A stretch of DNA of 64,000 bases from Dictyostelium discoideum (Eukaryota). A program made the translations under genes and the position numbers. Position 1 is the first letter of the stretch. Each line of letters starts with the position of its first letter. Positions 31,104-38,623 of this stretch are shown here, in pieces. Below the pieces are notes generated by a model. That model saw only the letters and a list, made by a program, of their open reading frames with translations. It was not told where the DNA came from and searched no databases. The DNA lies in assembly GCA_000004695.1 (NCBI GenBank), contig CM000154.2:1696001-1760000 (forward strand). Reading direction: 5' to 3'.

Positions 31104-32028
31104 GTATTGATTAAATAAATCAAAGGTTGTACAAGTGGAACTGGTTTATCTTTAGCCAAAAAATTGTTATCATTAGGACATAGTGTTGCTGGTACTACAA
31201 GAGATATTAATAAATTAAAACAATTGAGTATTTTTAATGATAAATCATTTTTGGGATTACAAGTTGATATTGTTTCCAGTAAATCAGTTAGAGAATCAAT
31301 TGAAAAAACTATTGAGCATTTTGGTGAATTAACCCATGTAATCAATAATGCAGGATATGGAATTGTAGGCTCCGTTGAAGAAGTATCAGAAGAAGAAGAC
31401 AAGAAATTAATGGATGCCCTTTACTTTGGTAGGTTTCAAAAAAAAAAATCCATTGTCAAAAAAAAAAAAAAAAAAAAAAAAAAGTATTAATTTTTTAATT
31501 TTTTATATTAATATATATATAGGTCCTTTAAATGTTATTCGTTCAGTTTTACCTTATTTCAGATCAAGAAACAATGGTTACATTTTTAATGTAAGTTCAA
31601 TTGCTGGTATTAAAGGCTATCCAAGATTTGGTAATTATAGTGGTGCTAAATTCGCATTGGTTGGTTTAACTGAATCATTAGCACAAGATGTTTTACCATT
31701 TAATATTAAAGTTTCATGTATTGTACTTGGTTATATTGCTACCGGTTTCCAAAGTGCAAATGATTATTGTAAAAATTTAATTCCAGAATATCAAAGTCGT
31801 CAAATATTTGGTTCAATAATGAAACATATTGAAGAAACTGTAACTGCTGGTGACCCTGATAAAGTTGCTGATGTTATCATTGAAAACTCTACCAAATCTG
31901 AATTACCATATAATCTTTTCGTTGGTCCACTAAGTACTTTTGAAATGGCTGAATCTAAAGTCAATGAAATTACTCAACAAATTCAATCTCAAAGAGAAAG
32001 AAATTCAAATATTTTAATTGAAAAATAA
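30934..32028 (+). CDS. Short-chain dehydrogenase/reductase (SDR) family oxidoreductase, 3 exons, 286 aa
   Basis: Exon 1, 30934..30985 (MEPILNSNEGKQVWYITG, donor GTAAGT). Exon 2, 31126..31428. Exon 3, 31523..32028. The Rossmann motif ITGCTSGTGLSLA (TGxxxGxG), NNAG and the catalytic YSGAK (YxxxK) are all present. The phases are consistent (861 nt). Confidence 0.85.
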
Positions 32029-32285: not shown

Positions 32286-34370
32286 TTAGATAATATATTT
32301 TGATAAATCAGTTTTGAATAATAATTCACTTAAATGTTTTCTAATGTCGGGAGTATCTAAAACAACTGTTTTACCTTTATGAATATCACAATTAAAACTT
32401 ATATCCTCTACGATACGTTCAATGATACCATGTAATCTTCTAGCGCCAAGATTTTGAACTTGAGCATTTGCTTCAAAAGCGATTTTTGCAACTTCTAACA
32501 ATGCATCATCAGTGAATTCCAATTGAATATCTTCAGTTTTAAGTAATGCTTTTTGTTGTTGAATTTGATTATTCTTTGGTTCAGTTAAGATCTTATAGAA
32601 ATCCTTTTGTTCCAATGGTTTAAGTTCAACACGAATTGGTAAACGACCTTGTAATTCACTAATGAGATCTGATGGTTTAGTATTATGGAAAGCACCTGAA
32701 GCAATGAATAAGATTCTACTGGTATCTATTTGACCATACTTTGTGCTAACCATACAACCTTCAACGATTGGAAGAAGATCTCTTTGAACGCCATCGGTTG
32801 AAGCGTCACCACCATTCTTTATACTTTCACGAGATGTACAAATCTTATCGATTTCATCCAAAAATACAATACCATTTTGTTCGGCCGATTGAATTGCCAA
32901 TTTGGTTACATCTTGAGAGACAGTGTAGAGGTCTCTATATTGTTTTTCAAAGATTTCTTTTGCCTCTGCAATGGTTACTTTTTTAATTTTTGATGGTTGT
33001 TTATCGATAGCAGAGAGTAGTTTAGCGATATTTTCATCATAAGCTTGACCCAAGGATCCCTTTGAATCGGATGATACTTCAATTTCAATCTCTACGGAAT
33101 CCAATTGACCTTCTCTATATTTCTTTAATAATTCTTCGATTGTGATTGCACTTAGATCATTTTGTAAACCAATTAAAGAGGAGATAACATTCTTTTCAAC
33201 ATCGGCTTCAATCGATGCTTTATGTGAGTTTGCAATCTTGGTTTTAATATTACTAATACTTGCTTCGATGAGATCACGAATGATTGTATCAACGTCTGGA
33301 CCATGAAAACCAACCTCTGTATATTTGGTTGCTTCAACCTTTACAAAGGGCGCATTGATAATCTTTGCTAAACGACGTGCCAACTCTGTCTTACCAACAC
33401 CAGTTGGACCAATCATTAAGATATTCTTTGGATAAACATCTGGTTTCATTGATGCATCTAAACGCTTTCTTCTCCAACGATTACGTAACGCAATTGAAAT
33501 GGCTCTCTTTGCATCGGATTGACCAATTACATATTCATCCAAACCACTAACTATATCTCTTGGTAATAAATTATCTTCTCCAATCATATCCTCTGTGAAA
33601 TTATACTTTGGTGCTACATGTTGTTGATGCTGCTGTTGTTGTTTGGCGTGATCTTTATTAAGTTTATTAAAATGTGATACCAAATGATTAATCGCTTTAT
33701 CCATGCTACCTCCGTTTTTTGTATCTGATAATTTCAAAAGTTTGTTAAATAAAATTGGATCCTCTTTAAAAATCTTTTCTAAATTTTCTTCAAGAATAGA
33801 GAGATTATATTTACCTTTACTTTGCATTGGTATTATAACCAAACCATTTTTAATATCACTTAAATCTGAAAAATCAAATTTATTTGTAACTTTTGATAAT
33901 AATGGTGATGTTGTTGTTGTTTTAGTTGTCGCTGTTTCAGTTTCAATTGGTTTTGATTCGAGTGGTGGTGTTGTTGTTGTTTTAGTTGTTGCTGTTTCTG
34001 TTTCAATTGGTTTTGATTCGAGTGGTGATGTTGTTTCTTTTGATTGCGATGGTTTTTGTTTATTTTTTGAACCCTTTGGTCTACCTCTTTTAGGTTTTTC
34101 TGTTGTTATATCTATTTCATTTGTACCTTCTGAAGCCTTTGTTGCTACAGTTTCTTTTTCTAAATCTTTTTCAATTTTCTTATAAATATGATCTAATTTT
34201 AAAGGATTTGAATCATCATTTTCAATATCATCTTTATCTTTACCATTTGTAATTGAACAATATCCTCTATTAAATTTTAAAATTGATAATTGTGGTTGTT
34301 GTGTTTGTTGGGATAATCTAAAAGTTAAAGATGATTTTGCTAATTTAAATAGATTTTTTGAATGAATCAT
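32286..34370 (-). CDS. HslU (ClpY) AAA+ ATPase homolog, bacterial-type, predicted mitochondrial, with a ~250-aa N-terminal extension containing an AT-hook and a tandem repeat
   Basis: A 694-aa single-exon ORF. The Walker A motif is IGPTGVGKTELARRLAKIINAPFVKVEATKYTEVGF. Further HslU blocks are VQRDLLPIVEGCMVSTKYGQIDTSRILFIASGAFH, SDLISELQGRLPIRVEL and NLGARRLHGIIERIVEDISF. The N-terminus MIHSKNLFKLAKSSLTFRLS is presequence-like. The segment KPKRGRPKGSKNKQKP is an AT-hook. A 20-aa repeat, PLESKPIETETATTKTTTT, occurs twice and is encoded by a 60-bp tandem repeat at about 33880-34030. Confidence 0.9.
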   Translation of the reverse strand: MIHSKNLFKLAKSSLTFRLSQQTQQPQLSILKFNRGYCSITNGKDKDDIENDDSNPLKLDHIYKKIEKDLEKETVATKASEGTNEIDITTEKPKRGRPKGSKNKQKPSQSKETTSPLESKPIETETATTKTTTTPPLESKPIETETATTKTTTTSPLLSKVTNKFDFSDLSDIKNGLVIIPMQSKGKYNLSILEENLEKIFKEDPILFNKLLKLSDTKNGGSMDKAINHLVSHFNKLNKDHAKQQQQHQQHVAPKYNFTEDMIGEDNLLPRDIVSGLDEYVIGQSDAKRAISIALRNRWRRKRLDASMKPDVYPKNILMIGPTGVGKTELARRLAKIINAPFVKVEATKYTEVGFHGPDVDTIIRDLIEASISNIKTKIANSHKASIEADVEKNVISSLIGLQNDLSAITIEELLKKYREGQLDSVEIEIEVSSDSKGSLGQAYDENIAKLLSAIDKQPSKIKKVTIAEAKEIFEKQYRDLYTVSQDVTKLAIQSAEQNGIVFLDEIDKICTSRESIKNGGDASTDGVQRDLLPIVEGCMVSTKYGQIDTSRILFIASGAFHNTKPSDLISELQGRLPIRVELKPLEQKDFYKILTEPKNNQIQQQKALLKTEDIQLEFTDDALLEVAKIAFEANAQVQNLGARRLHGIIERIVEDISFNCDIHKGKTVVLDTPDIRKHLSELLFKTDLSKYII

Positions 34371-34560
34371 TTTTATCTATCTATATATATCCTCCCTTTA
34401 CCCAATAATAATATATATAAATATTTATATGAATAATTAAAAGTTTTTTTTTTAAAAAAAAAAAAAATAAAATAAAATAAAATAAAAAAAAAAAAATAAA
34501 AAAAAATAAAATATATTATTGAAAAAAAAAAAAAAAAAAAAAAAAAATTAAAAAAAAAAT

Positions 34561-34591
<31 letters not shown>

Positions 34592-34910
34592 AAAAAAAAT
34601 TAATTAAAATTAAATAAAATGGAAAAAAATCGTTTTTTATTTTATTCTTTTTCCCTTTATTATGCATTTTGGAACAACTTAAATTTATTTTTTTAAAAAA
34701 AAAAAAATAATAAAAATAAAAATGAATTTCGGTTAAATTTTAGTAAACACGTTTCGTTTAAAATATTAATTGTGAATATCGATTTATGTGGGCCATTCTT
34801 TTTTTTTTTTTAATTTTCATTTTCATTTTCATTTTTTTCATTTTTTTTTTTTTTTATTTTTTTTATTTTTTTTTATTTTTTTTTTAATCTAAACAAAATA
34901 AATAATAAAA

Positions 34911-35374
34911 ATGAATTTTTATAAATTATTATCAAACAATTGTGTTAGATCATTAACGAAATCAATTAATAATAAACCAATAATAAATCCAAAATTTATT
35001 ACAAGCAATACTTTTATTAAAAGATCATATTTTACAAAATCACCAAATAATTTATATTCAAATAACTATGATAATTATGAAACTATAAATAAACAACAAC
35101 AACATCAACATCAACATCAACAACTTGAATTTCCAGAACAAAGAAATAATAATAGTAATAATAAAAAAGAAGAAATTACAGCAGAATCATTTGAATCAAA
35201 ACCATTAATTGTTGAATTAGATAGTAAAAACTTTAGTGAAGTTATAAAATCAAAAGTACCAATAATTTTAAATGTATATGTTAATCATGGTACAGTGTCA
35301 CCTGCATTAACTGAAGCATTAAAAGCATATGCTCAAGAATATCCTGGTTGTTTTTTATTAGCAAATGTAAGTGT

Positions 35375-35406
<32 letters not shown>

Positions 35407-36232
35407 TATATAATATATATGTATTATATAAAATAATTTCTAATTTCTTTTTATAATATGATAGTTAGATGTTGATAAGAATTTAGAAATAGCAAACGCA
35501 TTGAAAGTTGAACAATTACCAACTTTATTTACATTAAATAAAGGTCAAGTGCTTCAACAATTTGTTGGATTGCCAGATCATGAAACATTGGATAAATTGG
35601 TTAATGGATTATTGAAATTATCAGGTGGATTAATTGGTAATAAATCAATTGAACAATTACAAACCATTGCTGAATTATTCATAAAATCAAATGAAATCGA
35701 AAAGGCTATTGAAATCTATGAGAATCTATTATCAAATGATACAACTCAATTACTTAGAACTCTACTAGGCTTCATTCAATGTTACACAAATTTGAATGAA
35801 CCTGATCAAGTTGAAAAATATTTATCAATTATTAAAGAGAAATTCCCAAATGAATTAGATCATAAAATTATTCAATCATCTAAAAGAATTTTACAATTAA
35901 AGAAACAAGTCTCTCAAACTGTTGATAGTCTATATAAAACTCATAATCTTACTTTAGAACAAATCGAAGATAAATTAAATAATGATCCAACAAATTTAGA
36001 TTTAAAATATGATTTATCCTTATTATATTATCAAATTGGTGAATATGAAAAATCAATTAATCAATTATTAGAGATTTTAAAAATTAATAAAAAATTTACA
36101 CCAAAAAATGATGATCAATCAAATACAGATTCTGCTAAAAATTTAATTGTTAAAATATTTGAATCTTTAGATTCACAAGATCCATTAGTTATAAAATCAA
36201 GAAAACAATTAAATAATATTTGGTTCTCTTAA
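34911..36232 (+). CDS. Thioredoxin-fold domain plus C-terminal TPR-like helical domain protein (YbbN/CnoX-like chaperedoxin architecture), 2 exons, 407 aa, with a presequence-like N-terminus
   Basis: Exon 1, 34911..35366 (donor GTAAGT). The intron carries (AT)n/(TA)n. Exon 2, 35465..36232. The thioredoxin-like segment is ...FSEVIKSKVPIILNVYVNHGTVSPALTEALKAYAQEYPGCFLLANVDVDKNLEIANALKVEQLPTLFTLNKGQVLQQFVG. The CxxC active site is replaced by HGTVS, with no redox cysteines. The C-terminal half has repeated helical hairpins (IEQLQTIAELFIKSNEIEKAIEIYENLL…YYQIGEYEKSINQLLEILKI). Confidence 0.7.
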
Positions 36233-37932: not shown

Positions 37933-38376
37933 AGATGAATTATTATTATTTGAAGGGGGTGAATTTGCATTACTAAGGGGTTGTGGAGGACTTAGCATTA
38001 ATAATGGTGGTGTTTTCCTTCCATTATTATTATTATTATTGTTATTATTATTGTCTATATTTAATTTATTTGAAGATATTAAAGGTGGGGTTTCAATAAA
38101 TCTATTTAATTTTGGTTTTTTATCTTTACTTTTTTTGGTTATATTGTTATTATTATTATTATTAGAATGAGATTGTGGAGGTGAAGTGGCAGTTTTATTT
38201 ATTTTTTTGCTTGTTATTTTGGTTAATTTTTCATTATTTCCATCTTGTTGTTGCCCTTCTTCTTTTTCTTCTTTTGTGAATTTATTGGATTTATTGTTTC
38301 TACTATTTTGGTTATTATTATTTATTTTATTACTTTTTTTCATTTGCTTTTGTTTTGAATTATGACGACATGCCAA
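36418..38376 (-). CDS. WD40-repeat protein, DCAF4/WDR21-like (N-terminal PGYYFDxxKNRYF motif)
   Basis: A 652-aa single ORF with a low-complexity N/T/S N-terminus. It then carries EIPGYYFDVDKNRYFKLTKE, matching the DCAF4 signature as I recall it. The C-terminal half has WD-like repeats (GSVWIYS, ISIGGNGICYLYD, LLFNGSRDGIVRTLD, GDDGFIRIWN). Poly-N and poly-T are encoded by trinucleotide runs. Confidence 0.7.
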
Positions 38377-38473
38377 AATAAAATTTCATAAAATCCCCCC
38401 CTGATTTTTTGAAAATTTTTTCATTTTTTTTATTATTTTTAATTTTTTATAAATAAAAAAAAAAAATGAAGTT

Positions 38474-38523
<50 letters not shown>

Positions 38524-38623
38524 CAATTGTTGATTAATCAAGAAACTGTATCACTTAAATAAATATTTATATATATATATATAATATATATATATTATTT
38601 ATTTATTTAATTGGTGTGTAAAT

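Follow-up and report, generated by a model that had tools for sequence, protein, structure and literature searches.

The question raised by this locus is whether two genes that lie head to head in the nuclear DNA of Dictyostelium discoideum AX4 are also partners in function. In the 64,000-nucleotide stretch analyzed here (the window; contig CM000154.2, positions 1,696,001 to 1,760,000), the HslU gene DDB_G0288593 is transcribed divergently from DDB_G0288595, for which a preliminary description of the DNA had proposed the thioredoxin-fold/tetratricopeptide repeat (TPR) architecture of bacterial YbbN/CnoX. The gene models confirmed the arrangement given there, with HslU starting at 34370 (-), the second gene at 34911 (+) and the start codons 540 bp apart. 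We found that DDB_G0288595 is a full-length, true member of the YbbN/CnoX family that has lost its redox cysteines, and that its pairing with HslU is best read as a recent, lineage-specific accident of gene order in a compact genome. The two are probably independent nuclear genes of bacterial descent for mitochondrial matrix proteostasis, in which the CnoX-like protein would be a redox-independent holdase or docking co-chaperone of Hsp60 and HslU would work separately with HslV.

We base the family assignment of DDB_G0288595 on a trio of Pfam domains, a full-length alignment with E. coli CnoX and a structural model whose best PDB match is YbbN. The profile search gave Thioredoxin (PF00085) at residues 101-198 (41 bits against a cutoff of 23.5), TPR_19 (PF14559) at residues 226-282 (35.8 bits; cutoff 25) and TPR_20 (PF14561) at residues 311-406 (75.8 bits; cutoff 25). 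This is the same domain string as in bacterial YbbN/CnoX, and it bore out the proposed architecture. Residues 6-284 of E. coli CnoX (the E. coli CnoX and HslU reference sequences were taken from NC_000913.3) aligned with residues 100-406 of DDB_G0288595 at 22% identity and an E value of 3e-12 (BLASTP). When a profile of four dictyostelid sequences was compared with the PDB, it matched E. coli YbbN (3qou) with an E value of 6.8e-17, positions 9-308 being collinear with 9-283, and also an entry named 'Chaperedoxin' (9wcw; E ~7e-17). With just 5 sequences, AlphaFold2 (AF2) gave a predicted local distance difference test score (pLDDT) below 50 in the thioredoxin domain; a 100-sequence alignment remedied this and yielded a model with a pLDDT of 93.7 and a predicted template-modelling score of 0.80. 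The model showed a thioredoxin fold (beta-alpha-beta-alpha-beta-alpha-beta-beta-alpha) followed by ten helices. YbbN structures from E. coli and Salmonella occupied ranks 1-3 in a Foldseek search with this model (E 5e-14 to 1e-12, ~315 columns), with 3qou at the top. The thioredoxin domain alone superposed on thioredoxins at 1.2-1.8 A with template-modelling (TM) scores of 0.85-0.92, while the global TM-score against YbbN was low (0.45-0.50), in keeping with the mobility known for the thioredoxin domain (bioRxiv 10.1101/2022.05.03.490446). The cis-proline of the LPT motif (P80 of alignment A3) was invariant in 100 homologues. Like E. coli CnoX (YbbN; PDB 3QOU, 9WCW), the protein thus has a thioredoxin fold at its N-terminus and an atypical TPR domain at its C-terminus, and the two proteins are collinear throughout. 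It differs from E. coli CnoX in its low identity, in a 98-residue N-terminal extension with a presequence-like start, and in being encoded by a nuclear eukaryotic gene with an intron.

The preliminary description had also reported that the CxxC motif is replaced by HGTVS. In the BLASTP alignment, SQHC of E. coli CnoX fell on G128-T129-V130-S131, the GTVS of that string, and Cys63 of E. coli CnoX fell on V155, confirming that the site holds no cysteine. Since there is no cysteine at either the SQHC or the Cys63 position, DDB_G0288595 has lost every redox cysteine and can form no mixed disulfides, making the 'redox rescue' that depends on them impossible. We considered Cys148 as a substitute for Cys63 and rejected it: its counterpart in E. 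coli is Gln56 of NGQF, and other dictyostelids have Ser or Lys at the position. Orthologues carry GTIS (D. citrinum), GDLS (D. purpureum), DSLS (P. violaceum), NSYS (Cavenderia) and SDLS (Tieghemostelium) at the site; Acytostelium, with STHC, was the sole dictyostelid orthologue compared that has a cysteine there. A full CxxC was found in the distant amoebozoans Balamuthia (WCTPC), Phalansterium (WCAPC) and Soliformovum (WCEPC), and xxxC in the Planoprotostelium and Clastostelium homologues. The presence of CxxC in distant amoebozoans, of STHC in Acytostelium and of neither in the other dictyostelids indicates a stepwise loss of redox function within Dictyostelia. Judging from bacterial-length homologues that are also free of cysteine at the site (e.g. 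P0023, P0037, P0048), a cysteine-free CnoX is not unprecedented in the family. Active CxxC forms of YbbN/CnoX have been described (PMC6282202, PMC10998233). The Dictyostelium protein belongs to the same family as these Caulobacter, Pseudomonas and Xylella-type proteins, and its ...LFS-type C-terminus resembles the bacterial majority form and not that of E. coli, but it lacks both cysteines and would not be expected to have thioredoxin-like oxidoreductase activity. DDB_G0288595 thus belongs to the family by descent and fold, but functionally it is no chaperedoxin. A single conserved cysteine remains in the protein, C258 in the TPR domain (LLGFIQCYTNL, region of window 35682-35684, +), which was invariant in five dictyostelids. 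Cysteine was also the majority residue of this column in the 100-sequence alignment (consensus GLxxC), and E. coli has Glu there.

In E. coli, the last helix of CnoX binds the apical domain of GroEL through contacts at R255, R277, L279, Y280, L283 and Y284, and binding is abolished by a ten-residue C-terminal deletion or a C-terminal tag (Dupuy et al., bioRxiv 10.1101/2022.05.03.490446). According to the same study, the last helix is better conserved than the rest of the TPR domain, human mitochondrial Hsp60 is bound by E. coli CnoX, CnoX-like proteins occur in eukaryotes, and redox-independent Hsp60 'plugins' may exist. The AF2 model of DDB_G0288595 predicted a helix at residues 392-406. The E. 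coli contacts mapped, in order, to K377, K399, L401, N402, W405 and F406, so that five of the six GroEL-contact positions were identical or conservatively replaced. The C-terminus reads ...LLY in E. coli and ...IWFS in DDB_G0288595, where the ending DPLVIKSRKQLNNIWFS (SRKQLNNIWFS) matches the family consensus GRxRLSxxLFx. An ending of the form ...R(K/R)xLxxI(W/L)FS was common to most of the ~100 homologues, and R307 of alignment A3 was present in at least 90% of the sequences. It is the conservation of this helix that leads us to propose docking on Hsp60. With the TPR domain and the GroEL-docking helix kept and the cysteines lost, DDB_G0288595 would most likely serve mitochondrial Hsp60 as a holdase or docking co-chaperone that does not depend on redox chemistry.

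The loss of all catalytic cysteines, together with the free variation among dictyostelids of the residues at the former CxxC site, would also suit a decaying relic, devoid of chaperone function and maintained by drift or for an unrelated role. We consider this very improbable. Across Dictyostelia and beyond, the gene has retained an open frame, the position of its intron and its complete architecture, and 110 columns, most densely placed in the TPR domain and the C-terminal helix, were invariant in five dictyostelids (44-96% identity). The confident AF2 fold likewise argues for purifying selection, and the cysteine-free homologues of bacterial length are a further point against decay.

The N-terminus of the second protein had been described as presequence-like, basic and hydroxylated, and we found that both proteins are basic, hydroxylated and free of acidic residues at the start. 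The first 40 residues of DDB_G0288595 contain 7 K/R, 8 S/T and no D/E, and the first acidic residue is at position 54. HslU, basic at its start, is acid-free to residue 45. An R-x-Y|(F/C) motif was conserved in the N-termini of both proteins: as KRSYFT, an R-3-type processing motif whose R38, F41 and T42 were invariant in five dictyostelids, in DDB_G0288595, and as a conserved R-3 motif, NRGY|CS, in HslU. These features are consistent with a mitochondrial location of both products. Word-indexed searches with the single protein or the four-sequence profile reached only dictyostelids and few bacterial matches; a scan of bacterial genomes with the profile returned one weak locus only, its back-translated patterns being too dictyostelid-specific. 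On the other hand, an exhaustive representative search at E <= 1e-3 found 7259 relatives of DDB_G0288595. The best-scoring ones were eukaryotic, with N-terminal extensions of 58-133 residues. They came from Tieghemostelium, Acytostelium, Cavenderia, Synstelium, Balamuthia, Planoprotostelium, Clastostelium, Phalansterium and Soliformovum, and also from Acrasis (Heterolobosea), Chroomonas (a cryptophyte) and Incisomonas (a stramenopile). The N-termini of DDB_G0288595 and 14 eukaryotic homologues were basic and acid-free. Two of the models are odd: the Tieghemostelium lacteum orthologue (L005 8001-12672) is annotated with 1499 aa, fused to a DUF4211 region, and the Synstelium model (P0014; 718 aa) has a large insertion in the active-site loop. 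Both look like artefacts of merged gene models. A 'co-chaperone YbbN' occurs together with HslVU in the mitochondrial proteome of Diplonema (PMC12699882). The D. papillatum protein is thus eukaryotic, experimentally mitochondrial and of the same family name, although it is likened to DDB_G0288595 by name and orthology is assumed. The text of the Acanthamoeba mitoproteome paper mentions neither the YbbN/CnoX nor the HslU family.

The identification of the first gene as HslU held as well. The NCBIfam equivalog TIGR00390 (hslU) matched residues 268-694 over the whole profile (1-441 of 441) with 502 bits against a cutoff of 362, and residues 4-443 of E. coli HslU aligned end to end with the Dictyostelium protein at 47% identity (BLASTP). 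Both gene identities are far beyond chance. The Walker A (GPTGVGKT) and Walker B (IVFLDEIDKI) motifs were identical to those of E. coli, the I-domain region aligned with its E. coli counterpart (query 375-490), and the C-terminal HslV-activating tail read DLSKYII versus DLSRFIL in E. coli. Such a protein would be the AAA+ unfoldase partner of mitochondrial HslV. The bacterial ancestry that had been suggested for HslU was supported by its nearest prokaryotic relatives, which among the matches listed were alphaproteobacterial (Aestuariivirga, Rhodospirillales, Niveispirillum; ~50% identity); the Andalucia orthologue carries a mitochondrial annotation. Dictyostelium HslU resembles the HslU of protist mitochondrial HslVU (Trypanosoma brucei, Leishmania, Diplonema, Andalucia) in being nuclear-encoded, in having an N-terminal targeting extension and in its alphaproteobacterial-like core. 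The Tyr in its C-terminal tail recalls the HslU2 type as described in PMC4106860. It differs from the other protist proteins in its extension, which is unusually long at 267 aa and contains a tandem repeat as well as an AT-hook-like motif, and in its pore-1 loop (aa 351-354, window ~33310-33321, -), where GFHG stands in place of the canonical GYVG, the aromatic residue being kept and Val replaced by His. D. purpureum HslU has GYHG at this position. A histidine within the translocating loop of HslU is unusual. Kinetoplastids have two HslU proteins, whereas one was seen in Dictyostelium among the matches listed.

The head-to-head arrangement had been taken as a sign of co-regulation and possibly of functional pairing, and it is here that the preliminary description fared less well. 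In D. citrinum the order is SDR (short-chain dehydrogenase), HslU, CnoX-like, WD40 and MBOAT, as in D. discoideum, with a spacer of 546 bp. Order and orientation are the same in D. firmibasis, except that HslU and the CnoX-like gene are separated by a gene for a 511-aa BPI-like protein, from which HslU diverges instead. The CnoX-like gene of D. purpureum lies between a rearranged WD40-MBOAT-X block and genes that correspond to 57-62 kb of the window, with HslU on another scaffold. In P. violaceum the two genes are on separate contigs, the divergent neighbour there being a low-complexity protein. No HslU was found within 8 kb of the CnoX-like gene in Cavenderia, Tieghemostelium, Acytostelium or Planoprotostelium, and in E. 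coli, the sole bacterium compared for linkage, cnoX maps to 0.517 Mb and hslVU to 4.12 Mb. Among the species compared, only D. discoideum and D. citrinum therefore have the uninterrupted pair; D. firmibasis has another gene in between, and six other amoebozoans, like E. coli, show no linkage of the two, which speaks against a functional pairing. HslU and the CnoX-like gene would have become immediate divergent neighbours only in the D. discoideum/D. citrinum lineage. Nor is their adjacency itself beyond chance. The Dictyostelium genome has ~12,500 genes. Mitochondrial proteins of Dictyostelium number 936 (PMC9118663). From these figures, ~67 adjacent pairs of mitochondrial genes, ~20 of them divergent, are expected by chance. 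In this genome it is common for divergent genes to be separated by a few hundred bp, and the following -/+ junction of the window, WD40/MBOAT (~38344-38623), measures only ~280 bp. Co-expression of HslU and the CnoX-like gene would be no surprise, as for any pair so arranged.

If adjacency did reflect a role, the CnoX-like protein might be a holdase that passes its clients on to mitochondrial HslUV, as a substrate adaptor or hand-off factor, and not to Hsp60. The pair is adjacent in two species and close in a third, both families have a similarly patchy occurrence among protists (Dictyostelia, Balamuthia and, by proteomics, Diplonema), and in Planoprotostelium the homologue lies near an FtsH-type AAA+ protease gene. 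This reading is nevertheless hardly credible to us, as linkage was not conserved in amoebozoans or E. coli, we found no HslU interaction of CnoX in the literature consulted, and the best-conserved surface is the helix that docks on GroEL. In the Planoprotostelium fungivorum case (L007 4930-9436), the CnoX-like gene is 158 bp downstream of, and on the same strand as, a gene for an FtsH-type AAA+ protease with Peptidase_M41. It is a second, independent adjacency of a CnoX-like gene and an AAA+ protease gene and may be a coincidence.

The spacer itself could be a shared bidirectional promoter that co-regulates both genes, for instance under mitochondrial folding stress, with the proteins not necessarily touching. 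Its shortness would favor this, as would a plausible sharing of compartment and process by the two products. A/T runs dominated the output when the intergenic regions were compared by short-word BLAST, but two specific blocks emerged, GGAACAACTT at 34671-34680 and ATGAATTTCGGTTAAA at 34722-34737 (+), both non-homopolymer, mid-spacer and identical in D. citrinum. Residual intergenic identity is, however, expected between species as close as D. discoideum and D. citrinum, so that the blocks may be candidate promoter elements or simply the product of recent shared ancestry. In D. firmibasis, neither block turned up upstream of HslU or of the CnoX-like gene, and no heat-shock element of the form GAAnnTTC was present in the 540-bp spacer. 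Since, in addition, the arrangement was absent or interrupted in every compared species beyond D. citrinum, and unrelated neighbours such as WD40 and MBOAT are equally close, we regard a shared promoter as unlikely.

Several points weigh against two independent genes of which one encodes an Hsp60 co-chaperone. One GroEL-contact residue, Y280, is replaced by N402, and DDB_G0288595 ends one residue past the aromatic that gives the terminal carboxylate contact in E. coli. The proposed docking on Hsp60 is read from the CnoX side of the interface, and a literature search by the gene identifiers DDB_G0288593 and DDB_G0288595 returned no localisation, interaction or expression data. Finally, the two genes have stayed near each other in three close species, so that some chromatin-shared co-expression is possible.

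To our knowledge, CnoX has so far been characterized only in bacteria, plugged into GroEL. We tentatively suggest, while giving it less than an even chance, that dictyostelids carry a naturally cysteine-free mitochondrial CnoX, a redox-independent Hsp60 plugin that docks through its conserved C-terminal helix; a bolder version would add a hand-off to the neighbouring HslU. If the suggestion is true, there would be a graded natural series from CxxC through SxxC to none in a genetically tractable eukaryote. DDB_G0288595 is a concrete candidate for such a plugin: this CnoX orthologue has a presequence-like start, no redox cysteine and an intact docking helix, its close relatives still have one or both cysteines, and knockouts and tagging are routine in Dictyostelium. 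The idea of a gene pair adds little in comparison; the uncharacterized CnoX orthologue is the more interesting content of the locus.

The coordinates of the features are given in Table 1. Splicing of position 35366 to 35465 gave a single frame of 407 codons, and the 407-aa product was 100% identical to the database entry for DDB_G0288595. The intron had gone unmentioned in the preliminary description; it contains a (TA)n microsatellite of ~13 units (window 35376-35402, +).

Table 1. Features of the HslU/CnoX-like locus, in window coordinates.
Feature	Position	Strand	Description
HslU gene DDB_G0288593	32286..34370	-	single exon, 694 aa; translation matches DDB_G0288593 exactly
HslU N-terminal extension, aa 1-267	33570..34370	-	presequence-like start (NRGY|CS), AT-hook-like KRGRPKGSKNK, 20-aa unit SPLESKPIETETATTKTTTT repeated twice
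Divergent intergenic spacer, 540 bp	34371..34910	.	10.4% G+C, long A and T runs
CnoX/YbbN-like gene DDB_G0288595, exon 1	34911..35366	+	presequence-like N-terminus, N/Q-rich linker, first half of the thioredoxin fold including GTVS
Intron of DDB_G0288595	35367..35464	+	98 nt, GTAAGT...ATAG, with (TA)n run
Exon 2 of DDB_G0288595	35465..36232	+	second half of the thioredoxin fold (cis-Pro LPT), TPR_19, TPR_20, C-terminal helix DPLVIKSRKQLNNIWFS

A gene for a short-chain dehydrogenase flanks HslU in the window (31164-32028, +) and in L012 (6341-7150), and the D. citrinum neighbour matches adh_short. In E. coli the SDR gene ybbO immediately adjoins cnoX. That Dictyostelium HslU and E. coli cnoX both have SDR neighbours is almost certainly a coincidence.

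The long extension of HslU contains an AT-hook-like sequence, KRGRPKGSKNK, at aa 94-104 (window ~34059-34091, -). Its (K/R)GRP core was kept in D. citrinum, D. dimigraforme, D. firmibasis and Heterostelium album and was present in two copies in a further protein (eukprot P0192), while it was absent from the HslU extensions of P. violaceum and Acytostelium when the sequences were compared. The motif might tether HslU to AT-rich nucleoids of mitochondrial DNA; replication of mitochondrial DNA is under the control of HslVU in T. brucei, according to PMC2277460. Further along the extension, a 20-aa unit, SPLESKPIETETATTKTTTT, occurs twice in tandem at aa 114-153 (window ~33900-34030, -), and both the copy and the sequence of this unit differ among strains of the D. 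discoideum complex.

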